NCBI GenBank assembly: GCA_051891935.1
Contig: JBJFFR010000183.1
Coordinates: 8,665-72,664 of the forward strand
Source of the DNA: Oscillospiraceae bacterium
GTDB taxonomy: Bacteria; Bacillota; Clostridia; Oscillospirales; Ruminococcaceae
Direction of reading: 5' to 3'
Length of the DNA stretch: 64,000 nucleotides
Shown: piece by piece, positions 3,469-35,199 of the stretch
How the letters are laid out: each line of letters opens with the position of its first letter
Position numbering within the stretch: the stretch's first letter is position 1
Notes under the pieces: generated by a model
What the model was told of the DNA's origin: nothing
Seen by the model: the letters and a program-made list of their open reading frames with translations, nothing else
The model's database searches: none
Position numbers and translations under genes: made by a program

Positions 3469-3494
3469 CGGAATACTCTTATTTTATGGCATAA

Positions 3495-3698
3495 GGGAAC
3501 CTCTAAAAACCTCCTTCTCGGCAAATTTTCTATGACTTATATCATCTGCTGCGTTATCAAAGTAAACGCTGTATAGATTGAATAAATGAAGCGTTTACTT
3601 ACCTTGTAATACATCAAGTATTACTGCGGTTTGATGTCTTGCAGCTGATATAGGTCATATACGAAAATTTGCTCGAGTCCCGGTTTTTAGAGAACCCC
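3495..3698 (+). repeat. Structured palindromic repeat (about 210 bp, MITE-like), copy 1
   Basis: Ends GGGAACCTCTAAAAACC ... GGTTTTTAGAGAACCCC. Homologous copies lie at 36407-36618 (reverse) and 48841-49062. Long internal arms are complementary. It ends 17 nt before the mreC start. Confidence 0.85.
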
Positions 3699-3715
3699 AT
3701 AAGGGAGATGATAAT

Positions 3716-5231: not shown

Positions 5232-7376
5232 ATGAATTTCGCTTCAATAGCAAAAAAGATCAGAACGATCATACTGATAGCCTTTGTGCTGCTTGCAATG
5301 TCGATGTGCGCTCTTGCACTGATGAAAATGCAGATCGTTGACGGTGAAAAATACCTTGAACAGGCGAAAAGCACACGAACCGTCACGCAGGACATAAGCG
5401 CACCCCGAGGAGAGATCGTTGACGCTTCGGGAAAAGCAGTTGTAAGCAACAAGGTCGGCTACAATGTAATACTTGAAAAGGCATTCCTGTCCTCCGATGT
5501 GCAGGAGATAAACAGAATAATCCTGCGCATTGCGGAGATACTTGACGAGGACGGAGTTGAGTGGAACGAATCTCTGCCGATAAGCCGCACTGCGCCGTAC
5601 AGCTTTCTTGAAATGCGTGATTCGGACATTGCAAAGCTTCGCAAAAATATATCTGTGCAGCCTTATGCGACTGCGGAGGAATGTATCGAAGCGATGCTTG
5701 CGCTTTACAAGGTCGATGATTCCTATACCGTTCGGCAGAAAAGGATCATTGTCGGTATCCGCTATGAAATGGCTATACGCAGCTTCTCGCTTGCAAACCG
5801 CTACACGCTCGCAGAGGATATTCCCATGGCAAGCGTTGTGAAGCTGAAGGAAGCGGCGTTTGAGCTTGAGGGAATGGACGTTGCCGAAGAGGCTATCCGG
5901 GTTTACGAGGAAAACAACTACGCTCCGCATCTTGTCGGAACGGTCGGTTCGATAAACGCAGAGGAATATGAAACGCTCAAAGAAAGCGGTTATATGCTCA
6001 ATGACGTCCTTGGCAAGAGCGGCGTTGAAAAGGCTATGGAAAGTCAGCTGCGAGGAACGATGGGCACTCGTGAGCTTGAGCTTTTAAACGGAATCGTTTC
6101 TTCCGACACGATAACAAAGGAAACAGTTCCCGGAAATACCGTAAAGCTTACGATAGATATGGATTATCAGCACCAAGTCCAGCAGATACTTGAAAACCAT
6201 ATTACATGGCTTCAGAATCAGACCTCAAAGGACAAAAAGGGTGAAAATGCAAATGCCGGAGCTATCGTTGTAACGGACGCAAAGACGGGAGCTCTTATAG
6301 CAGCTGCGACTTCTCCGACCTATAACATCAACGATTATCTCAACAACTATTCCGCTGTTGCAAACGGAGAGAATTCTCCGCTCATAAACCGTGCGACCTC
6401 GGGACTTTACCGCCCGGGTTCGACCTTCAAGACGGTCACGGCAACGGCAGGACTTAACGAGGGGGTAATATCCCCGAACACGTTCATCTCCTGCAACAAG
6501 GTCTACACCTACTGGGAAGACTATCAGCCTAAATGCACGGGTTATCACGGCAGGATAAATGTTGTTACTGCGATCGAGAAATCCTGCAACATCTTCTTCT
6601 ACGAAACGGGCAGGCAGCTTGGCATCGACCGTCTTGCAGGCTATGCAAAGCTTTACGGCTTCGGTCAGAACACGGGACTTGAAACGGGAGATATGGCAGG
6701 CTATTTCGCAACGCCCGAAAGCTTTCAGGAACGCCGCCTTGAATGGCAGGCAGGACTTGTTGTTCAGGCTGCTATCGGACAGTCGGAAACCTACGCAACT
6801 CCGCTGCAGCTTGCAATGCTTGCGAACACTATCGCAAATCACGGTACACGCTACAAGCCCTATGTTGTGGACAGTGTTTACACATATAATATGGAAAGGC
6901 TTGTTATCAAGACGCAGCCGACTGTTGCGGCAAACGTTCCCGATGAAACGGGCGTAACGTTTGACAATATTATAAAGGGTATGGAAAACGCCGCAAACTT
7001 TGTTCCGTATTCTTATCCTGCGGTCAAGGATTACTACACGAATTATCTTCTTTCCGAGCTTCCGCAGCAGGCGGCAATAAAAACCGGTACTCCCCAGATG
7101 ACCTCTGCGGAGGATACGGGTTCTGCGTTCATCGGCTTTTATCCCTCGGAAGATCCCGTTATTGCATTTTCGGGATTTGTTGAACACGGCGATTACTCAA
7201 AATTCATGATACGCCAGATCATTGAAGCTTATTTCAACAAGAATTACAAAGTGGCTTCCCCGAATGTTCTGACCGATGAAGAAAGAGCTGCGCTGCTTGC
7301 TGGCATCGGTGAAAATGTACCTGCAGAAACGGTTGTAACGACTTTCGATGACGGCACCGCACCCGCAGTTCAATAA
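5232..7376 (+). CDS. mrdA: Penicillin-binding protein 2 (class B transpeptidase)
   Basis: N-terminal TM, then SxxK (GSTFK), SxN (KSCN) and KTG (IKTGT) motifs. Length 714 aa. Part of the mre cluster. Confidence 0.85.
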   Translation: MNFASIAKKIRTIILIAFVLLAMSMCALALMKMQIVDGEKYLEQAKSTRTVTQDISAPRGEIVDASGKAVVSNKVGYNVILEKAFLSSDVQEINRIILRIAEILDEDGVEWNESLPISRTAPYSFLEMRDSDIAKLRKNISVQPYATAEECIEAMLALYKVDDSYTVRQKRIIVGIRYEMAIRSFSLANRYTLAEDIPMASVVKLKEAAFELEGMDVAEEAIRVYEENNYAPHLVGTVGSINAEEYETLKESGYMLNDVLGKSGVEKAMESQLRGTMGTRELELLNGIVSSDTITKETVPGNTVKLTIDMDYQHQVQQILENHITWLQNQTSKDKKGENANAGAIVVTDAKTGALIAAATSPTYNINDYLNNYSAVANGENSPLINRATSGLYRPGSTFKTVTATAGLNEGVISPNTFISCNKVYTYWEDYQPKCTGYHGRINVVTAIEKSCNIFFYETGRQLGIDRLAGYAKLYGFGQNTGLETGDMAGYFATPESFQERRLEWQAGLVVQAAIGQSETYATPLQLAMLANTIANHGTRYKPYVVDSVYTYNMERLVIKTQPTVAANVPDETGVTFDNIIKGMENAANFVPYSYPAVKDYYTNYLLSELPQQAAIKTGTPQMTSAEDTGSAFIGFYPSEDPVIAFSGFVEHGDYSKFMIRQIIEAYFNKNYKVASPNVLTDEERAALLAGIGENVPAETVVTTFDDGTAPAVQ

Positions 7377-7378
7377 AA

Positions 7379-7572
7379 TTAAGGAATCGCTGATTAAATC
7401 GCGCCTACGGCTTGGCACGCATCTTGCGCCCGAATATCGGGTTGCATATATTTCCGTCATATTGCACCAAAACTCCTTGACATACGACAGTATGCCTGCG
7501 TCGTTTTGATACAATCTGACGAAAAACCTGACTGCGCAATCTGCGCACCAGATTTAATCAGCGCTTCCTTAA
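7379..7572. repeat. 194-bp element with 22-bp terminal inverted repeats TTAAGGAA(T/G)CGCTGATTAAATC
   Basis: Left end ttaaggaatcgctgattaaatc (7379-7400); right end gatttaatcagcgcttccttaa (7551-7572). The core AAGGAAACGCTGAT recurs at 149, 938, 19510 (reverse), 36516, 48908, 54952 and 55006. Confidence 0.6.
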
Positions 7573-9409: not shown

Positions 9410-10738
9410 ATGGAGCTTATCACAAAAAGACCAAAGGGAACGCAGGACGTTAAGCCGTCCGATGTCTACAAGTGGCACACGGTTGAGCAGATTGCCGCTG
9501 AAACGGCAGAATGCTACGGCTTTAAGGAGATACGTTTCCCGACTTTCGAGAACACAAAGCTTTTTAAGCGCAGCGTAGGCGATTCGACCGACGTTGTACA
9601 GAAGGAAATGTATGGAGTTACCGCAAAAAGCTCCGCTAACGGCAAGGACGATGATGACTTCACGCTCCGTCCCGAGGGCACGGCAGGAGCAGCAAGAGCT
9701 GTTCTTGAAAACGGTATGCTTTCGGACGCACTTCCGCAGAAGGTCTACTACAACATTTCCTGCTTCAGACATGAAAAGCCGCAGGCTGGCAGGCTCCGTG
9801 AATTCCACCAGTTCGGCGCAGAAATGTACGGAAGTGCTTCACCTGCAGCAGATGCGGAAATGATAGCGATGGTTGACGCTTTCCTCCGCCGCCTTGGAAT
9901 AAAGGGAGTTGCGCTCAACATCAATTCTATCGGCTGTCCGAAGTGCCGCAGCGAATATCACAAGGCACTAAAGAGCTATTTTGAAGGCAGAAAGGACGAG
10001 CTTTGCGGAACCTGTCGGGAAAGACTTGAAAAGAATCCGATGCGAATCCTCGACTGCAAGAGCCCTATCTGTCAGGACATTGCAAAGGATGCGCCGGTTA
10101 TCCTTGACTATCTCTGCGAGGACTGCAGCAGCCACTTTGAAAAGCTGAAAAAGAACCTTACGGCGATGAATATTGAATTCACCGTAAATCCGAAGATCGT
10201 AAGAGGTCTTGACTATTACACAAAGACGGTTTTTGAGTTCGTTACAACGAGCATAGGTGCGCAGGGAACAGTCTGCGGCGGCGGACGTTATGACGGACTT
10301 ATCGAGCAGCTCGGAGGAAACCCGACGCCTGCTCTCGGTTTTGCGATGGGCATCGAGCGTCTTATCATGACTATGGAAAATCAGGGCTGCGATTTTATCG
10401 AGCCGAAGAAATGCGCTCTCTACATTGCTGCAATGGATGAGGCTGCGCTTGAAAAGGCGATCGTTCTGACAAAGACTCTCCGTGATGACGGTATCTGGGC
10501 GGAATACGATCTTGCAGGACGAGGAGTTAAGGCACAGATGAAGTATGCCGACAAGCTTGGTGCAGATTTCACCATGGTACTCGGCAGCAACGAGCTTGAA
10601 AGCGGCAAAGCACAGCTCAAAAATATGGAAACTGGTGAAAAGGTCGATATTTCCCTCGGTGACAGCTTCCTTGATGATTTTTCCAACATCTCGGTTGCAA
10701 ATATGTTCAGCGGTGTGCTGGATGATATTAATCTTTGA
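9410..10738 (+). CDS. hisS: Histidine--tRNA ligase
   Basis: Start MELITKRPKGTQD at ATG 9410 (RBS aaaagga). Class II motifs (FRHEKPQAGRLREFHQ, GGGRYD) and a C-terminal anticodon-binding domain. Confidence 0.95.
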   Translation: MELITKRPKGTQDVKPSDVYKWHTVEQIAAETAECYGFKEIRFPTFENTKLFKRSVGDSTDVVQKEMYGVTAKSSANGKDDDDFTLRPEGTAGAARAVLENGMLSDALPQKVYYNISCFRHEKPQAGRLREFHQFGAEMYGSASPAADAEMIAMVDAFLRRLGIKGVALNINSIGCPKCRSEYHKALKSYFEGRKDELCGTCRERLEKNPMRILDCKSPICQDIAKDAPVILDYLCEDCSSHFEKLKKNLTAMNIEFTVNPKIVRGLDYYTKTVFEFVTTSIGAQGTVCGGGRYDGLIEQLGGNPTPALGFAMGIERLIMTMENQGCDFIEPKKCALYIAAMDEAALEKAIVLTKTLRDDGIWAEYDLAGRGVKAQMKYADKLGADFTMVLGSNELESGKAQLKNMETGEKVDISLGDSFLDDFSNISVANMFSGVLDDINL

Positions 10739-11247
10739 TCGTGGAATATCCGAGAAGAAAACCGAACAGGCTAAAAGGGTATGATTACAGCGGAAACGGA
10801 ACGTATTTTATTACAATATGCACCCGAGACCGTGAATGTATTTTATCGGATATAAATGTAGGGGACGGGTTTCCCGTCCCGATTCTCACGGATTACGGCA
10901 GAGTATCCGATAGATTTATTAATTTTATCACAGAAAAGTTTCATACTGTATTTGTTGATAAATATGTTATAATGCCAAATCATATCCATCTTCTATTGGT
11001 TGTACAAAATTCGGACATTACCGCAGGCGGGACGGGAAACCCGTCCCCTACAATTGGGAATGTCGTTGGCTGGTTGAAATATCAGATAACCAAACAAATC
11101 AATGATATCCGCGGCATAGCCGGACAAAAAATTTTTCAGCGTTCCTATCACGACCACATTATCAGAAACGAAAAAGATTTTCAGATGATATGGAAATATA
11201 TTGACGAAAACCCTTTGAAATGGGAGAGTGACTGCTTTTATGTGTGA
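10735..11247 (+). CDS. IS200-like Y1 (HUH) transposase domain protein, RayT-like (REP-associated tyrosine transposase type)
   Basis: YDYSGNGTYFITICT, HUH motif in MPNHIHLLLV and C-terminal FQRSYHDHIIRNEKDF...ENPLKW. About 170 aa and single-domain. The TTG/GTG start overlaps the hisS stop. Confidence 0.75.
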   Translation: MIVEYPRRKPNRLKGYDYSGNGTYFITICTRDRECILSDINVGDGFPVPILTDYGRVSDRFINFITEKFHTVFVDKYVIMPNHIHLLLVVQNSDITAGGTGNPSPTIGNVVGWLKYQITKQINDIRGIAGQKIFQRSYHDHIIRNEKDFQMIWKYIDENPLKWESDCFYV

Positions 11248-11734: not shown

Positions 11735-11766
11735 TTATATAAAATATATTGAAAGGAAGTTTTAAT

Positions 11767-13548
11767 ATGGCAGACACAATGGCAGGTCTTCACCGCACAC
11801 ATTACTGCGGCGAGGTCCTTAAAGCAGGAGAAACGGTTACGGTCGGCGGCTACGTTGACACGGTAAGAAACAAGGGCGGTATCATTTTCATGGTCGTTCG
11901 TGACAGAACGGGTATTGTTCAGCTCACCTTCAACGAAACAACGGACAAGGAGATATTTGAAAAGGCTGCGTCCTGCCACTCCGAATATGTTGTTATGGCA
12001 AAGGGTGAAGTCCGTGAGCGTGAGAGCATAAATGACAAGATCGCAACAGGTCATTTTGAGATATTTGTTGACGACCTCCGCATCCTTGCAAAGGCACAGA
12101 CCCCTCCGTTTGAGATCGTTGACGACACAAACACAAACGAGGAGCTTCGTCTTAAATACCGTTACCTTGACCTTCGCCGCAAGAAGCTCCAGGACAACAT
12201 CATAAAGAGAAGCAAGATTGCAAAGGTCGCAAGAGATTACTTTGCGGAGAACGGCTTTATTGAGATCGAAACACCGATGATGATAAAGTCCACTCCCGAG
12301 GGCGCAAGAGATTATCTTGTTCCGTCAAGAGTTCACCCCGGCAAGTTCTATGCTCTTCCGCAGTCACCGCAGATATACAAGCAGCTGCTTATGATCGCAG
12401 GCTTTGACAGATACATTCAGCTTGCTCGCTGCTTCCGTGATGAGGATCTCCGTGCGGACAGACAGCCAGAATTCACACAGATCGACCTTGAAATGTCCTT
12501 TGTTGACACGGAAGACATTATGCAGATGGCTGAAGGCTTTGTAAAGCGTGAATTCTCCGAGGTTCTCGGCATAGACATCCCGACTCCGCTCCCAAGGCTT
12601 ACCTATACAGAAGCTATGAACCGCTACGGTTCGGACAAGCCTGACACACGTTTTGAAATGGAGATCGTTGACATCACCGATACTGTCAAGGACACCGATT
12701 TTGTTGTGTTCAAATCTGCGATCGAAGCAGGCGGTTCGGTTCGTGCTATCACGGCAAAGAACTCCGCTGCAGCGCTTACAAGAAAAGAGATCGACAAGCT
12801 TATCGAACACGCAAAGGGCATTGGAGCAAAGGGTCTTGCTTACATCCGCTGGAATGATGACGCTCCCAACTGCTCGTTCGGTAAATTCCTCAAGGAAGGC
12901 GAGCTTGACGCTATTCTCAAGGCGACAGGAGCAGAAAAGGGCGATGTAGTTCTTATTGCAGCAGACAAGAACAGCTTTGTTCTTCCGCTTCTCGGTGCGC
13001 TTCGTCTTAAAGTTGCAAAGCAGCTTGATATGATCCCCGAGGGCAAGTTCAACTTCCTCTGGATCACAGAATTCCCGTTCTTTGAATGGAACGAAGAAAC
13101 ACAGCACTGGGACGCTATGCACCACCCGTTCACAATGCCGATGGATGAATGCTTACAGTATCTTGACAGCGACCCGAGCAAGGTATTCGCAAAGGCTTAC
13201 GACCTTGTTCTCAACGGCACGGAGCTTTCGAGCGGTTCTATTCGTATCACCGACTATGAGCTTCAGCAGAAGATGTTTGAATCGCTCGGACTTACCGATG
13301 AAGAGATCGAAGCGAAGTTCGGCTTCCTTGTTGACGCATACAAGTACGGTGCAGCTCCTCACGGCGGCATGGGAATCGGTCTTGACAGACTTTCTATGAT
13401 AATGTGCGGCGCAGACAATCTCCGTGACGTACTTGCATTCCCAAAGGTACAGAACGCATCCGAGCTTATGTCCTCCTGCCCTGCAGCAGTAGATAAGGAG
13501 AGCCTTGATATTCTCGGTATCGCTGTTACGGAAAAGGAAGAGGATTGA
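11767..13548 (+). CDS. aspS: Aspartate--tRNA ligase
   Basis: Start MADTMAGLHRTHYCGE (RBS gaaaggaag). Motif 2 FRDEDLRADRQPEFTQID and motif 3 GGMGIGLDRL. About 593 aa. Confidence 0.95.
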   Translation: MADTMAGLHRTHYCGEVLKAGETVTVGGYVDTVRNKGGIIFMVVRDRTGIVQLTFNETTDKEIFEKAASCHSEYVVMAKGEVRERESINDKIATGHFEIFVDDLRILAKAQTPPFEIVDDTNTNEELRLKYRYLDLRRKKLQDNIIKRSKIAKVARDYFAENGFIEIETPMMIKSTPEGARDYLVPSRVHPGKFYALPQSPQIYKQLLMIAGFDRYIQLARCFRDEDLRADRQPEFTQIDLEMSFVDTEDIMQMAEGFVKREFSEVLGIDIPTPLPRLTYTEAMNRYGSDKPDTRFEMEIVDITDTVKDTDFVVFKSAIEAGGSVRAITAKNSAAALTRKEIDKLIEHAKGIGAKGLAYIRWNDDAPNCSFGKFLKEGELDAILKATGAEKGDVVLIAADKNSFVLPLLGALRLKVAKQLDMIPEGKFNFLWITEFPFFEWNEETQHWDAMHHPFTMPMDECLQYLDSDPSKVFAKAYDLVLNGTELSSGSIRITDYELQQKMFESLGLTDEEIEAKFGFLVDAYKYGAAPHGGMGIGLDRLSMIMCGADNLRDVLAFPKVQNASELMSSCPAAVDKESLDILGIAVTEKEED

Positions 13549-13550
13549 TC

Positions 13551-13595
13551 TAATGCGTAATGCACTGCGAAGCTGGGCATCGTAATTGCGTAATT
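13551..13595 (+). repeat. Left inverted-repeat arm of the 13551-15377 island (heptad family)
   Basis: taatgcgtaatgcactgcgaagctgggcatcgtaattgcgtaatt. Its reverse complement recurs at 15326-15377 with one extra heptad. Confidence 0.9.
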
Positions 13596-13632
13596 ATTTT
13601 CAGCCGAAAGCATTTTTTCAATATACAAAACA

Positions 13633-13670
13633 CGCCGTTCACGGTTTTATTGATCGTGAACGGCGATTTT
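13633..13670 (+). terminator. Terminator hairpin after aspS (left copy of a 43-bp direct repeat)
   Basis: cgccgttcacg / cgtgaacggcg, an 11-bp stem. The 43-nt block 13623-13665 is repeated exactly at 15258-15300. Confidence 0.7.
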
Positions 13671-13689
13671 AATAAATCGGATAAAACAA

Positions 13690-13718
13690 TTGACAAAAGC
13701 CTATGTAACTGATAAAAT
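13690..13718 (+). promoter_or_regulatory. Promoter of small-ORF transcript, copy 1
   Basis: TTGACA (13690-13695), 17-bp spacer, TAAAAT (13713-13718). Confidence 0.6.
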
Positions 13719-13782
13719 AATGGTATGGGCATACCTAAACGGTAGGCGGTCAATCTTTGCTCCCTGAAAGGGGGGCGTTGCT

Positions 13783-13869
13783 ATGGGCGTTCTTGAAGTT
13801 TTAACTCTCGGACTACTTATTTGCGCTGTAATACAGCTAATGCAAAATAGCAATAACAAAAAGAAATAA
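13783..13869 (+). CDS. 28-aa hydrophobic peptide, candidate type I toxin, copy 1
   Basis: MGVLEVLTLGLLICAVIQLMQNSNNKKK. SD run GGGGGG lies 7 nt upstream and can pair with GCTCCC (13759-13764). The ORF is below the ORF-track size cutoff and is identical in copy 2. Confidence 0.55.
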   Translation: MGVLEVLTLGLLICAVIQLMQNSNNKKK

Positions 13870-13948
13870 CCGCCCCAGCTTCGAAATGCGGCGGTTAATC
13901 TTTCGCTTAAAGTTTCGGGAGCGACCGTCTATCGGTATTGCTCTCTTT
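13858..13948 (-). ncRNA. Predicted antisense RNA (candidate antitoxin), copy 1; ends approximate
   Basis: Starts about 7 nt downstream of the - strand promoter at 13955-13983. Runs through hairpin AACCGCC/GGCGGTT (13868-13896) into a T-rich tract (ttatttctttttgtt on the - strand) that overlaps the last codons of the small ORF. Confidence 0.45.
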
Positions 13949-13954
13949 ATAGTT

Positions 13955-13983
13955 ATTATAATCGCTTTTAACTGATATGTCAA
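13955..13983 (-). promoter_or_regulatory. Convergent consensus promoter, copy 1
   Basis: On the - strand: TTGACA (13983-13978), 17-bp spacer, TATAAT (13960-13955). Confidence 0.65.
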
Positions 13984-14033
13984 GATAAAAATCCTCTTTT
14001 TCAACGGCGATTTTAATAAATCGGATAAAACAA

Positions 14034-14062
14034 TTGACAAAAGCCTATGTAACTGATAAAAT
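14034..14062 (+). promoter_or_regulatory. Promoter of small-ORF transcript, copy 2
   Basis: Same TTGACA-17-TAAAAT arrangement, 344 bp downstream of copy 1. Confidence 0.6.
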
Positions 14063-14126
14063 AATGGTATGGGCATACCTAAACGGTAGGCGGTCAATCT
14101 TTGCTCCCTGAAAGGGGGGCGTTGCT

Positions 14127-14213
14127 ATGGGCGTTCTTGAAGTTTTAACTCTCGGACTACTTATTTGCGCTGTAATACAGCTAATGCAAAATAGCAATAA
14201 CAAAAAGAAATAA
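14127..14213 (+). CDS. 28-aa hydrophobic peptide, candidate type I toxin, copy 2
   Basis: Nucleotide-identical to 13783-13869, with the same RBS and 5' UTR hairpin. Confidence 0.55.
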   Translation: MGVLEVLTLGLLICAVIQLMQNSNNKKK

Positions 14214-14289
14214 CCGCCCCAGCTTCCAACTCGGCGGTTATTCTTACACCTAAAATTTGGGAGCGACCGTCTATCGGTATGCCCTCTTT
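14202..14289 (-). ncRNA. Predicted antisense RNA (candidate antitoxin), copy 2; ends approximate
   Basis: Downstream of the - strand promoter at 14296-14324. Hairpin stem AACCGCC/GGCGGTT is conserved (14212-14239), while the loop and body have diverged from copy 1. Confidence 0.45.
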
Positions 14290-14295
14290 ATATTT

Positions 14296-14324
14296 ATTAT
14301 AATCGCTTTTAACCGATATGTCAA
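14296..14324 (-). promoter_or_regulatory. Convergent consensus promoter, copy 2
   Basis: On the - strand: TTGACA (14324-14319), 17-bp spacer, TATAAT (14301-14296). Confidence 0.65.
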
Positions 14325-14468
14325 GAGAAAAAATTTCTTTTTCATTCAATCAACCGTCAGTTGATTTTTTAGGAAGGAATTAAACTGACATTCGTTTGAC
14401 ATTTTGGGTTTTTATATGCTAAAATAAAGTCAACAAAAGCTTTTGATTTTTAAAAAAGGAATGAAAAT

Positions 14469-15251
14469 ATGAATATCAGCATAGGTGAAAATATCAAAAC
14501 TCTTCGCAAAAAAATGGATGTCGGTCAGGACGTGCTTGCGAACGCTGTCAGCGTTTCCGTTCAGGCAGTTTCAAAATGGGAAACGGGACAATCGCTGCCC
14601 GATGTTGGAATAATCCCCGATATCGCAGCGTTCTTCGGAGTGAGTATTGACAGTCTTTTCTTCGGAGAAGCCGCAGACTGTACAAAATCGGACAGGCTTT
14701 CTCTTCCCGATGATGACAAGCTCTATATTGTTCAGGTTCGTAACGGCGAAATTCTTGACAGAGAAAAATGGGACAGAAATTCACACATAAAGCTCGCCGT
14801 TGAGGATTTCAAGGGTACGCTCCACGCCGAGATATGGGGCAGTGCGGACATAAAGGGAGATGTTGGAGGAAATGTGAATGCCGGTGACGGTGTTGCCTGT
14901 CAGAATGTAGGCGGAGATGTAAATTCAGGCAGCAGTACAGCTTGTCAGAACGTCAGCGGAGATATAAATTGCGGCGACAGTGTAAACTGCGGAAATGTCG
15001 GCGGTGGAATAAATTGCGGCGACAGTATAAACTGTGGGAATGTTGGTGGAGAAATAAACGCAGGCGACAGTGTGAACTGCGGAAATGTCAGCGGTTCGGT
15101 AAGTGCAAACAACCGTATCCGCTGCGGAAATATTTTCGATTGTCAAAAGATATCCTGTGAAACGCTCTATGCCGAGGGCAGTATAGAATGTGGTTCGATC
15201 GAATGCGGCGGAGATATCCACACAGGGGAAAAAATAAATGGGGTGAACTGA
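14469..15251 (+). CDS. XRE-family HTH protein with C-terminal Gly/Asn/Cys-rich 15-residue repeats (possible beta-helix, bactofilin-like)
   Basis: N-terminal HTH_3-like (IKTLRKKMDVGQDVLANAVSVSVQAVSKWETGQSLPD). Residues 133-222 form six 15-aa repeats (GGDVNSGSSTACQNV / SGDINCGDSVNCGNV ...). Confidence 0.7.
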   Translation: MNISIGENIKTLRKKMDVGQDVLANAVSVSVQAVSKWETGQSLPDVGIIPDIAAFFGVSIDSLFFGEAADCTKSDRLSLPDDDKLYIVQVRNGEILDREKWDRNSHIKLAVEDFKGTLHAEIWGSADIKGDVGGNVNAGDGVACQNVGGDVNSGSSTACQNVSGDINCGDSVNCGNVGGGINCGDSINCGNVGGEINAGDSVNCGNVSGSVSANNRIRCGNIFDCQKISCETLYAEGSIECGSIECGGDIHTGEKINGVN

Positions 15252-15267
15252 GATTTTATACAAAACA

Positions 15268-15311
15268 CGCCGTTCACGGTTTTATTGATCGTGAACGGCG
15301 TGTTCGTTTTT
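15268..15311 (+). terminator. Terminator hairpin (right copy of the 43-bp direct repeat)
   Basis: Same cgccgttcacg / cgtgaacggcg stem, followed by tgttcgttttt. Confidence 0.7.
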
Positions 15312-15325
15312 ATTATTATCAAATC

Positions 15326-15377
15326 AATTACGCAATTACGATGCCCAGCTTCGCAGTGCATTACGAATTACGCATTA
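15326..15377 (-). repeat. Right inverted-repeat arm of the island (heptad family)
   Basis: aattacgcaattacgatgcccagcttcgcagtgcattacgaattacgcatta is the reverse complement of 13551-13595 plus one extra heptad. It contains the ppk1 stop codon. Confidence 0.9.
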
Positions 15378-17544
15378 TAAATTGTCTGTCCGCTTTTCTG
15401 TTCTTTTTGCTGCGTTTGCGCTTTACCTTAACTCGTTTTGCAGGTTTTGCTGCTGTTTGAACCGATACCTGCTGCGGCTCCTTGACTGCGGCGGCATTTT
15501 CCACGCTTTCTTCGATAAAGCTTGCCTGCGAATCAATAAGCTCTTCGCCCGTTTTCGGCTGCTTATATTTATACGAGCTGTCGGGGAGCATAACTCTTGC
15601 CTTGACGTTATCGGCAAGCATCGTATTGAAGATGTTGACGATCCTCTCACGGACGTGTTCATCGTAGATAGGTGCTGCGACTTCAACACGGCGGATAGTG
15701 TTTCTTGTCATAAAGTCGGCGGAGGATATATAGAGCTTCATATCCTTGCCCTTGCCGAACATATAGATACGGGCGTGTTCAAGGTAGCGGCCGACGATGC
15801 TCGTTACCTCGATATTATCGGTATAGCCCTCGACGCCTGCGACAAGGCAGCAGATACCTCTTATGACCATCTGAATTTTAACCCCGTTCATTGAAGCTTC
15901 TGCGAGCTTGTCGATAAGCACACGGTCGGTAACGGAGTTCAATTTCAGACCGATATAAGCTTCCTCGCCCTTTTTAGCCTTTGCGATCTCTCCGTCGATA
16001 AGCTCTATTATTTTGTTCTGGAGGCTCAAAGGTGCAACAAGAAGATGCTGCGTATCCTCAACAAGCGTTCCCATTGAGAGGGCGTTGAAAACTGCGCCTG
16101 CTTCGGCTGCGATATCCTTGTTTGCGGTCATAAGGCAGAGGTCGGTATAAAGTGCGGAGGTCTTTTCGTTGTAGTTGCCTGTACCGATCTGCGTGATGTA
16201 TTCCACGCCGTTTCCGTTCTTGCGTGTAATAAGGCAGAGCTTTGAATGTACCTTGAGGTTTTCGGGGCCGTAGATAACGTTGCAGCCTGCGTCTTCAAGC
16301 TGCTTCGACCAGCCAATGTTGTTTTCCTCGTCAAATCTTGCTCGGAGTTCAACGAGAACAAGCACGTTCTTTCCGTTTTCCGCAGCGTTCACAAGGGCTT
16401 CGACCACCTTTGAATCGGAAGCGACACGGTAGAGGGTTATCTTTATCGAAACGACATCGGGGTCAAATGCCGCTTCGTTCAGCATACGCAGGAAAGGACG
16501 GATGGATTCATACGGATAGTAGAGAAGAATGTCCTTTTTGAGCACCTGGTCAATAACGGGCAGCTCGTGGACGATCTCACGGGACCTCTGCGGAACGGCT
16601 CTGCGGAAGAAAAGCTCGGGGTCTGCGCTTTCAAGCTTGGCTCTTATCGGGAAGACGCAGGAAAGGTCGAGCGGTGATTTCTGGCGGAAGATCTTATCGG
16701 GTGTAAGCTCGAGATTGCTGCGCAGGAATGCGAGCGATTCCTCGTCAAGCTTTCGTGAAAGCTCCATTCTTACGGGAGAAAGCTTTTTTCGCTTCTGGAG
16801 AAGTGATGTCATGACTTCACGCAGGTCGACCTCGTGGTCGTAGAGCGCTTCTTCCATATTGATATCGGCATTTCTTGTAATTCTCATCAGAGATTTGCAT
16901 AATATCTTATAATTTTCAAAGACGATCGGCATATAATGAAGTATAAGCTCTTCGACAAGCATAAATCTCATCTTATTTGCGGTCGGGAGGAAGATGACAC
17001 GGGAGAATGAGCCGCTTGCCGCAATTATGCCGAGCTTCATCGACTGGGATTTTGATTCGAGATGCGCAACGGCATATATTTCCTTGTTTTTAAGGAACGG
17101 GAACGGGTGGCGCTTGTCGATTATCTGCGGAGAGATGAGCGGAAGTATCTCTTTTGTAAAATAAACACGCAGGAACTCCTCTTCCTCTTTGGAAAGAGCC
17201 TTGAAATCGACCTGCTCAACGCCGTAGCGGTCTTTAAGCTGCGACATTATATCACCGTATGCCTTGTCACGCATAAGCGCAAGCTCGGTGCAGCGCGCAA
17301 AGATAGCGGAAAGCTGCTCAGCGCAGGTCATATCCGTTTTGTTGTCACGTTCCTCATCGTCAACGAGGGTTCTGTCGTAAAGCGAGCCGACTCTTATCAT
17401 AAAGAATTCATCGAGGTTCGACTGGAAGATCGAAGCGAACAGCAGACGTTCGCCGAGAGGGACGCGTTCATCCATAGCTTCTTCAAGCACACGCTCATTG
17501 AATTTCAGCCAGGAAAGCTCTCTGTTGTCATAATAATTTTTCAT
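15361..17544 (-). CDS. ppk: Polyphosphate kinase 1
   Basis: MKNYYDNRELSWLKFNERVLEEA N-terminus and PLD-like C-terminal domains (HSKLCLI, EHARIYMF). Length 727 aa with a Lys/Arg-rich C-terminal tail. Confidence 0.95.
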   Translation of the reverse strand: MKNYYDNRELSWLKFNERVLEEAMDERVPLGERLLFASIFQSNLDEFFMIRVGSLYDRTLVDDEERDNKTDMTCAEQLSAIFARCTELALMRDKAYGDIMSQLKDRYGVEQVDFKALSKEEEEFLRVYFTKEILPLISPQIIDKRHPFPFLKNKEIYAVAHLESKSQSMKLGIIAASGSFSRVIFLPTANKMRFMLVEELILHYMPIVFENYKILCKSLMRITRNADINMEEALYDHEVDLREVMTSLLQKRKKLSPVRMELSRKLDEESLAFLRSNLELTPDKIFRQKSPLDLSCVFPIRAKLESADPELFFRRAVPQRSREIVHELPVIDQVLKKDILLYYPYESIRPFLRMLNEAAFDPDVVSIKITLYRVASDSKVVEALVNAAENGKNVLVLVELRARFDEENNIGWSKQLEDAGCNVIYGPENLKVHSKLCLITRKNGNGVEYITQIGTGNYNEKTSALYTDLCLMTANKDIAAEAGAVFNALSMGTLVEDTQHLLVAPLSLQNKIIELIDGEIAKAKKGEEAYIGLKLNSVTDRVLIDKLAEASMNGVKIQMVIRGICCLVAGVEGYTDNIEVTSIVGRYLEHARIYMFGKGKDMKLYISSADFMTRNTIRRVEVAAPIYDEHVRERIVNIFNTMLADNVKARVMLPDSSYKYKQPKTGEELIDSQASFIEESVENAAAVKEPQQVSVQTAAKPAKRVKVKRKRSKKNRKADRQFIMRNS

Positions 17545-19365: not shown

Positions 19366-19579
19366 TAATGCGTAATGCGTAATTCGTAATGCGTAATTAT
19401 TTGCTGCGCTGTTCATTTACGTTTTAATCTGTAGGGGACTGATGTCCTGAAAAATAAAAGTGCGGTCACGATTTGTAAGTACATTTCGTGACCGCACCTT
19501 TTTCTATGCACTTTAATCAGCGTATCTCTAACAGATAAGCGAAGCTAATTACGCATTAAGCATTACGAATTACGCATTA
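19366..19579 (+). mobile_element. 214-bp heptad-armed element (MITE-like), copy A
   Basis: Left arm TAATGCG TAATGCG TAATTCG TAATGCG TAATTA (19366-19399) and inverted right arm (19547-19579). Central hairpin gtgcggtcacga/tcgtgaccgcac (19460-19498) with flanking A- and T-runs. Homologous to 34986-35199 in reverse. Confidence 0.8.
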
Positions 19580-28917: not shown

Positions 28918-29084
28918 TTAATACTAATAACCATTTGTTCTATGGATAAAGACGGTGGATAGAATACGACCAATCAAGGAAAACGACCGCAGGCAGGCTG
29001 CCGCCTGTCAAGGGAGTTTGACGCAGAGTGGGCGTATTATAGCCGCCGTATTTTATCCATAGGTTAAATGGTTATTAGTATAAA
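28918..29084. repeat. 167-bp imperfect palindrome in a divergent intergenic region
   Basis: Arms of about 51 nt, ttaatactaataaccatttgttctatggataaagacgg... versus ...ccgtattttatccataggttaaatggttattagtataaa, about 80 percent complementary. Confidence 0.7.
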
Positions 29085-34985: not shown

Positions 34986-35199
34986 AAAATTAATTTAATG
35001 CTTAATTCGTAATGCGTAATGCGTAATTAGCTTCGCTTATCTGTCAGAGGTGCACTGTTTAAAGCTTATTGAAATAAAAACTAAAGGTGCTGTCACGAAA
35101 ATCAAAATCGTGACAGCACCTTTGTTTATCCCACAAATTATATCGTAAATGAACAGCGCAACAAATAATTACGCATTACGCATTACGAATTATGCATTA
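34986..35199 (-). mobile_element. 214-bp heptad-armed element, copy B (reverse orientation relative to copy A)
   Basis: Arms at 34986-35019 and 35167-35199. Central hairpin aaaggtgctgtcacga/tcgtgacagcaccttt (35083-35123). Subterminal blocks gcttcgcttatctgt and cgtaaatgaacagcgcaacaaat match copy A. Confidence 0.8.

Follow-up and report, generated by a model that had tools for sequence, protein, structure and literature searches.

We analysed a 64-kb stretch of DNA (the window) from an Oscillospiraceae bacterium, in which a 1827-bp island lies between aspS and ppk1, the genes of aspartyl-tRNA synthetase and polyphosphate kinase 1. The island holds three genes and two direct copies of a hairpin, and it is bounded by inverted terminal arrays of a 7-nucleotide unit, TAATKCG (heptad arms). 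We find it rather probable that this island is a heptad-armed intergenic slot in its loaded state. Comparison with related genomes suggests that the arms mark long-lived slots with exchanged contents, and not a vehicle that carries genes. The source genome (G000) is a 2.87-Mb metagenome-assembled genome (MAG), 85% complete, of an uncultured Oscillospiraceae/'Ruminococcus' lineage; the genomes compared with it are MAGs as well. Below, congener genomes are labelled G0xx, compared loci L0xx, and positions on other contigs are given as C followed by contig number and position. Coordinates given without a contig refer to the window.

The arms carry the sequence TAATTA at their inward ends. As the preliminary description of the island had proposed, they form inverted-repeat boundaries with one extra heptad on the right (TAATTCG, running on to 15377). 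The repeats measure 50 nt each (13551-13600 and 15321-15370) instead of the 45 bp first given, and are 94% complementary. A 33-nt core of the arm occurs exactly twice in the window, where no occurrence is expected. In the whole genome, about 111 arrays of at least two TAATKCG heptads were counted. About half of them are solo, while paired arrays form about 22 short inverted elements of 92-342 bp and a few longer ones enclosing genes. When read inward, the heptads present TAA in all three frames. At 66 of the 111 arrays (59%), an open reading frame (ORF) of at least 100 codons reads in and ends inside the array or no more than 15 nt before it, as compared to 5.5% of random sites; 35 of these 66 ORFs stop at the TAA of the array itself. 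The short elements form subfamilies with common interiors, many of these interiors being mutually unrelated. Arrays were found in 10 of 18 congeners besides G000, and in none of 42 other genera. Both arms of the island belong to a subtype in which a 20-nt insert interrupts the heptads. The same subtype occurs at C146:22910, C139:196, C88:41318 and C70:36508, and is kept in several congeners. The insert (13565-13584 and 15337-15356) contains GCGAAGC, a sequence that forms a very stable DNA mini-hairpin; GCTTCGC or GCGAAGC also adjoins many plain arms.

Inside the arms lies a direct repeat, which had been described as a 43-nt block with a hairpin. Its presence and orientation were exact, and its length was corrected to 44 nt (13622-13665 and 15257-15300, 100% identical); the left stem measures 11-14 bp. 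Only these two copies exist in the genome. The left hairpin is cut off after ...GGCG, and the right one has a complete stem of 15-18 bp with T runs on both strands; the z-scores of the DNA folds are -4.8 and -7.1, respectively. Both copies read GCCGTTCACGG...CGTGAACGGC and belong to a class with a TCACG...CGTGA apex, in which the apex is constant and the lower stem varies with compensating changes. Of eighteen hairpins of this class with perfect stems in the genome, 10 lie no more than 160 nt from an array, including the two of the island. Because the arm subtype and the hairpin class both recur in the genome, the arms and hairpins of the island are true parts of the heptad family. This also upholds the proposed kinship with the elements at 19366 and 34986. 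The island departs from the usual form of the family, which has one hairpin, is non-coding and spans 90-350 bp.

To follow the locus through the genus, we compared the region between aspS and ppk1 in about 20 related loci. The nearest relative, G018 (locus L001), is 95-98% identical in DNA sequence across the island and shows the same plan, arm-hairpin...XRE-hairpin-arm, without 13666-14168. In G018, the left hairpin is complete (...GGCGTGTTTTT) and is followed by sequence starting in the middle of a toxin ORF; the G018 version of the direct repeat extends further. Since G000 and G018 share the plan but differ in the junction after the left hairpin, the architecture is old and the 3′ side of the hairpin prone to deletion. 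The island was found in these two genomes only, at the same locus, with no second copy in G000. A metagenome scan with aspS as query returned nothing closer than 96%, and an exact look-up of the XRE protein returned one 1.1-kb Logan contig only.

More distant congeners (94-98% amino acid identity in aspS) have a heptad array directly after the aspS stop, with a varied sequel; the array is kept in L001-L005, L082 and L084. In G010 (L002), the array is followed by foldback modules, XRE, its own terminator, a gene for an NAD-dependent epimerase/dehydratase and ppk1. The order is XRE, epimerase, ppk1 in G007 as well as in L083, L084 and L116, and XRE, pnuC, epimerase, ppk1 in G008. REP, terminator and XRE follow one another in G014 (L005) and L085. 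REP, terminator, epimerase and ppk1, with no XRE, are found in G015 (L004) and G013 (L006). Finally, L082 shows array, XRE, array and then a methionine-transporter operon. XRE is single-copy in 8 congeners and adjoins aspS in 6 genomes including G000; the orthologues next to aspS in G010, G007, G008, G014 and several metagenome contigs are 61-82% identical in amino acid sequence. At these sister-species loci, the 44-nt repeat is missing and, mostly, so is the right arm. Homology between the island and the loci of its relatives begins at 14348, right after the second of two toxin-antitoxin (TA) units, and neither the 44-nt repeat nor TA units in the aspS slot were found in any of the more distant congeners.

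The right-hand side of the island differs from its counterparts in the relatives. There, the epimerase gene stands downstream of ppk1 on the same strand, in an operon with it. No orthologue of the epimerase gene was found in G000, which has only paralogues of about 28% identity, and the right arm begins roughly at the place expected for the start codon of the epimerase. Homology of XRE to L002 stops at about 15233, some 18 nt short of the stop codon, and the last five or so XRE codons are unlike those of every relative. The last four codons and the stop codon of ppk1 are encoded within the right arm. Taken together, the compared loci indicate that the left array and XRE are old at aspS; what sets the G000/G018 lineage apart is that it gained the TA units, the second hairpin and the right arm and lost the epimerase. 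An empty or element-only aspS-ppk1 site, which the preliminary description had led us to look for, was not seen among these loci.

At other loci as well, the arms stay while the contents change. In the slot between a histidine kinase gene and a gene for a peptidoglycan-binding protein, both gene ends carry arrays, in inverted orientation, in G014, G007, G008 and G013. What they enclose in G014 and G007 is a REP, one or two TA units, a terminator and another REP; by BLAST, two TA units lie between the arms in G008 and one lies by the right arm in G013. In G000 (C116:34078-34361), the arms of this slot surround a single hairpin of the TCACG type and a small foldback, and TA units are absent. The slot between an htpG-like gene and a transporter gene reads arm-REP-TA-hairpin-arm in G010, and in G000 (C163:9449-10450) the same arms surround a 1-kb nested palindrome. 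Thus, at three orthologous loci (aspS, kinase and htpG-like), the arms stay at the same gene ends and the interiors differ between species, type I TA units recurring as slot contents. In this general form, the idea that such elements act as landing pads is supported. The XRE gene of G015, which shares 75% identity with those of G014 and G008, is located in a different armed slot, sodA/ilvC, and the array-adjacent module of G015 is collinear with the aspS-side module of G010. Moreover, the interior of element 34986-35199 is inverted at the orthologous G018 site (L202, C1:3880-4380), hairpin and flanks being the same, which shows that inverted arms do recombine.

Further observations concern slot contents. 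A pnuC-like transporter gene is present in the aspS slot of G008 (L173 1280-2200) and in an array-bounded interval of G000 (C49:11413-12988), so the same few accessory genes recur between arrays. The nested palindrome of about 1 kb (C163:9449-10450; L003 7800-8692; L002 3490-4000) consists of concentric inverted repeats with GCGCAATTCACG hairpins and is bounded by heptad arrays; halves of it adjoin XRE in G010 and G015. The G018 site orthologous to 34986 contains an extra nested foldback. A search of this genome for genes of family PF05635 (four-helix-bundle / 23S rRNA IVS protein) found none.

On the reading of the island as a loaded slot, its history in the lineage leading to G000 and G018 could have been as follows. 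A TA unit of the genus-wide multicopy family would have inserted between the aspS-side hairpin and the promoter region of XRE, and would later have been duplicated in tandem. The tail of XRE, its terminator and the epimerase gene would have been replaced by a second hairpin copy, a spacer and the right arm, and for this reason ppk1 would now end inside the arm. The left hairpin is a probable terminator and insulator for aspS, expected to halt its transcripts ahead of the toxin promoter. The right hairpin is a predicted bidirectional terminator that would serve both XRE (plus strand) and ppk1 (minus strand), and the two together would shield the toxin promoter and XRE from read-through. The 44-nt duplication is not a transposition footprint; most likely, it is a by-product of a local illegitimate or replicative rearrangement at the hairpin while the interior was rebuilt. 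That hairpin duplication might be a general signature of insertion was not confirmed: no other direct hairpin duplication lies near any array in this genome, and the gene-loaded slots of other species have a single hairpin each.

Several observations weigh against this reading. That both arms of the island carry the rare insert, seen in about 6 of 111 arrays, argues for one unit; in G018, however, the right arm, unlike the left, lacks the 20-nt insert. The left arm-spacer-hairpin and the right hairpin-spacer-arm rejoin neatly into a canonical element: as first predicted, removal of the cargo, by joining 13551-13665 to 15301-15377, leaves a 192-bp arm-hairpin-arm sequence laid out like the 92-342-bp elements of the genome. 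No intermediate state records the order of events. XRE is also found between inverted arrays in L082, at sodA/ilvC in G015 and probably in G002; it could therefore be a long-standing passenger of armed units and not a plain chromosomal resident. Finally, the MAG is incomplete (85%), and the terminator and TA functions are deduced from sequence alone.

Among the other explanations, one gives the arms an active role. They would be docking or recombination sites of a genus-specific cassette exchange, the TCACG...CGTGA hairpin could be a protein-recognised core, and interiors would be swapped or flipped between slots. In every slot, the two arms repeat one short motif in opposite orientations, and recombination within them could thus exchange whole interiors between slots or flip them. 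We consider such a system unlikely. If it were real, the genus would possess an integron-like intergenic pool (terminators, TA units, XRE, pnuC), with no integrase recognised so far.

We give a similarly low probability to the scenario closest to the preliminary description, in which a pre-existing 192-bp arm-hairpin-arm element, part of a mobile armed unit, took up the TA units and XRE in one insertion that duplicated 44 nt. The exact rejoining of the two halves, the family class of the hairpin, the shared rare arm subtype and the location of XRE (flanked by inverted arrays in L082, at a different locus in G015) all speak for it. However, XRE stands beside the aspS array in sister species where the repeat is missing and TA units are absent, and the arms at the G015 locus are of another heptad dialect, CGGAATK, which argues that the arms did not travel with XRE. 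A duplication of 44-48 nt fits no known transposition footprint and is the only case in the genome. Further, the junction truncates XRE at its 3′ end and the epimerase is missing, which resembles replacement more than insertion; neither an empty or element-only site nor a second copy was seen. These data suggest that XRE occupied the slot earlier than the right arm and hairpin. Because XRE occurs at this locus without the repeats, a result that the preliminary description had itself named as refuting it, a one-step capture of TA units and XRE at the hairpin, as well as a role of the element as a carrier, is unlikely. As for the carrier role, no plasmid match to the island and no phage relative were found either, apart from a single weak 104-nt phage match to the TA region.

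It is distinctly improbable that the island is no unit at all, namely two independent solo arrays on convergent gene ends with ordinary local terminators as hairpins. Arrays are oriented by the gene that they abut (59% abut a gene end), so that an inverted pair arises automatically wherever genes converge. Some half of the arrays are solo, the G018 arms are of different subtypes and the left array long predates the right one, all as this explanation would have it. It does not account for two hairpins that are both of the family type and identical over 44 nt, with spacer lengths matching those of the short elements. Moreover, about 2.5% of gene ends carry an array, which makes two at one junction unlikely by chance.

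Still less probable is that the 44-48-nt repeats represent attL/attR-like cores left by an integrated element that has decayed (similar to a cis-mobilizable element, CIME), or the product of a Campbell-type circle integration, with XRE as a remnant repressor and the TA units as stabilisers. The repeats flank the cargo exactly, the G018 repeat is longer, and the DNA-binding domain of XRE resembles phage and RstR-type repressors. Against this stand the absence from the island of an integrase ORF or a remnant of one, a GC content (0.47-0.49) that is the same as that of the neighbours, the lack of a phage or plasmid relative, and the orthology of XRE at the locus in species without the repeat; no single-repeat site was found.

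IS200/IS605 elements have ends with identical hairpins in direct, not inverted, orientation. The segment from hairpin to hairpin could accordingly be seen as a non-autonomous unit of this style with subterminal hairpins (PATE), which the RAYT-like Y1 enzyme, whose single-copy gene lies 2.3 kb upstream (10735-11247), would mobilise in single-stranded form. We judge this very improbable, as the hairpin is confined to the island, with no further copies and no target motif, and the likely substrates of the RAYT are REPs with a different, GTAG-type hairpin (at least 14 copies). Two other models were rejected. For a composite of two full elements with later loss of the inner arms, no heptad remnant lies next to the stop codon of XRE or downstream of the left hairpin. 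If the second hairpin had come from gene conversion between the arms, it would be inverted, whereas its loop and 5′ flank are direct. A miniature inverted-repeat transposable element (MITE) carrying cargo is not supported either: the island has no flanking target-site duplication, and neither an empty site among the compared loci nor further copies were found.

Table 1. Features of the aspS-ppk1 island and its flanking genes (window coordinates).
Feature	Position	Strand	Details
aspS (aspartyl-tRNA synthetase)	11749..13548	+	Pfam tRNA-synt_2, GAD and anticodon OB domains; own TGA stop 2 nt ahead of the left arm
Left heptad arm	13551..13600	+	TAATGCG TAATGCA, 20-nt insert CTGCGAAGCTGGGCATCG..., then TAATTGCG TAATTA
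Direct-repeat copy 1	13622..13665	+	hairpin stem 13633-13665, ends after GGCG
Type I TA unit 1 (putative)	13657..14000	+	predicted toxin promoter 13690-13718; 28-aa ORF 13783-13869
TA unit 1, shared bidirectional terminator (predicted)	~13870-13897		
TA unit 1, antisense promoter (predicted)	13983-13955	-	
Type I TA unit 2 (putative), tandem copy	14001..14344	+	predicted toxin promoter 14034-14062; ORF 14127-14213; predicted antisense promoter 14324-14296
XRE upstream region	14345..14468	+	small hairpin TCAACCGTCAGTTGA and T run; predicted promoter 14396-14425
XRE-family gene	14469..15251	+	260 codons; Cro/C1-type helix-turn-helix, Pfam HTH_3 37.5 bits
Direct-repeat copy 2	15257..15304	.	repeat 15257-15300; full stem
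Right heptad arm	15321..15377	-	one heptad longer than the left arm
ppk1 (polyphosphate kinase 1)	15361..17544	-	Pfam PP_kinase domains

The contents of the island agree with the two TA-like units and the XRE/repeat-protein gene first noticed there, as judged from ORFs, promoters and the Pfam HTH_3 match (Table 1). The left part of the interior is a 344-bp tandem duplication (13657-14000 and 14001-14344), of which the first 227 nt are 100% identical. Each copy contains a 28-codon ORF, MGVLEVLTLGLLICAVIQLMQNSNNKKK, followed by a GC-rich bidirectional terminator and a converging promoter. The toxin promoter matches 11 of 12 positions and has an extended -10 element, and the antisense promoter matches 12 of 12. 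Both the antisense RNA (predicted length about 90 nt) and the predicted toxin mRNA fold better than shuffled sequences (z-scores of -2.5 and -2.2, respectively). In the predicted fold, the GGGGGG Shine-Dalgarno sequence of the toxin is paired in a 5′ stem. Two further units are present on contig C118, with about 82% nucleotide identity. As compared to one of these copies, the ORF differs by 11 synonymous codon changes and by none that is non-synonymous; such purifying selection argues that the 28-aa peptide is real. The family was detected in 13 of 18 congeners, including genomes without arrays, with 1-7 matches each and often in tandem, and was not found in 22 other genera. Searches of Rfam gave sub-threshold matches only, to BsrG (20.5 bits for a threshold of 55) in the TA region and to STnc240 (32.8 bits).

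Each unit is thus likely to consist of a gene for a 28-aa membrane peptide curbed by a convergent antisense RNA overlapping its 3′ end. TxpA/RatA and BsrG/SR4 of B. subtilis share this organization, with a hydrophobic peptide of about 30 residues and a basic tail, convergent promoters, a shared bidirectional terminator and a Shine-Dalgarno sequence sequestered in a 5′ stem. In contrast to these systems, the units of the island have no significant sequence match or Rfam membership and are genus-specific.

The third gene encodes an XRE-family protein, whose C-terminal half is modelled by AlphaFold as a Cys/Gly-rich beta-solenoid. The block-mean predicted local distance difference test (pLDDT) score is at least 80 from about residue 141 and at least 90 for about residues 161-250. 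In a fold search, the matches covered the helix-turn-helix only, and no solved relative of the C-terminal solenoid was found. Homologues are scattered across 12 genera of the family. Those outside the genus, present in 13 of 200 family genomes, lack period-7 arrays in their vicinity, and the association of XRE with arrays is therefore limited to the genus.

Some variation was observed among the arrays themselves. A second heptad dialect, CGGAATK in place of CGTAATK, is found at some species and loci (L003 7800-7835; L175 3088-3105 and 4640-4676; C71:8125-8150). It replaces or accompanies CGTAATK there, which suggests a concerted change with some binding factor. The interval C71:7504-9450 contains three small genes, of which two encode membrane proteins. 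An array and the module CCGCACATACNTCACGAAAA, in direct orientation, follow each gene, which looks like a tandem duplication of gene-plus-array units.

Other repeats are found in this genome. The single-copy RAYT-like Y1 transposase gene lies inside the hisS-aspS operon and has no flanking repeats; its match to NCBIfam REP_Tyr_transpos (E 2.6e-18) is below the cut-off. At the same place, G018 and G010 carry a RAYT-like paralogue that is just 44% identical. The REP hairpins of the GTAG type, GTAGGGGCGGATTCYATATCCGCCC, are found for instance at C71:7575, C88:2624 and C116:40349, often 50-100 nt inside arrays. Other short multicopy elements occupy 28918-29083, 3492-3702, 7375-7571 and 144-227 and have as many as 35 or more matches in G018. 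For three of them, the orthologous G018 site lacks the element precisely, the flanks meeting there with 1 nt left or a 9-nt overlap. These elements are active MITE-like families distinct from the heptad arms.

A literature search found no description of a TAATKCG-type heptad. The closest published parallel is the GGGAATC heptamer of Xanthomonas campestris and X. citri, 89-93% intergenic and on average 28 nt from the upstream ORF end, with 70-75 convergent pairs per genome and the same gene context between species in 83% of cases (Rehm et al. 2015, PMC4692102). The two types of array have in common tandem 7-nt units, an intergenic location near ORF ends, convergent pairs and conserved positions. 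The TAATKCG units, however, are A/T-rich, have no G tract and cannot form G-quadruplexes, present TAA in three frames and enclose a hairpin class. In addition, their interiors vary and hold genes, whereas the Xanthomonas repeat sites were reported to be more conserved than controls (PMC4692102). The TAACTGA repeats of marine Beggiatoaceae, Cyanobacteria and Bacteroidetes carry stops in all frames in one orientation (MacGregor 2015, PMC4679880). They resemble the heptads in these three-frame stops and in that they may overlap ORF ends, but they mostly form direct arrays just upstream of start codons and were proposed to be translation regulators; only one inverted pair, and no enclosed cargo, was reported (PMC4679880).

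Correia/nemis elements of Neisseria, ERIC, RUP, BOX and the BIME/REP elements of E. coli are likewise short, multicopy and intergenic, with inverted ends, a location at 3′ gene ends and terminators or hairpins; the RAYT-like gene and the GTAG-hairpin REPs of this genome add to the likeness. Compared to such MITEs, the arms described here are tandem heptads in variable number instead of unique terminal inverted repeats, no target-site duplication is seen and three genes are enclosed. Beyond the published heptamer arrays, the present data add a Firmicute dialect, a conserved hairpin class and direct evidence of exchangeable gene-bearing interiors.

For annotation, the island is a warning that C-termini such as that of ppk1 can be derived from an element. 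If the arms are stable fixtures with exchangeable interiors, gut Oscillospiraceae would possess a small compartment for accessory genes, lying between housekeeping genes and outside the classical islands, phages and plasmids. Intergenic heptamer arrays would then gain a testable role, as insulated slots that end translation in all frames and transcription in both directions, and the settling place of multicopy type I TA modules would be explained.

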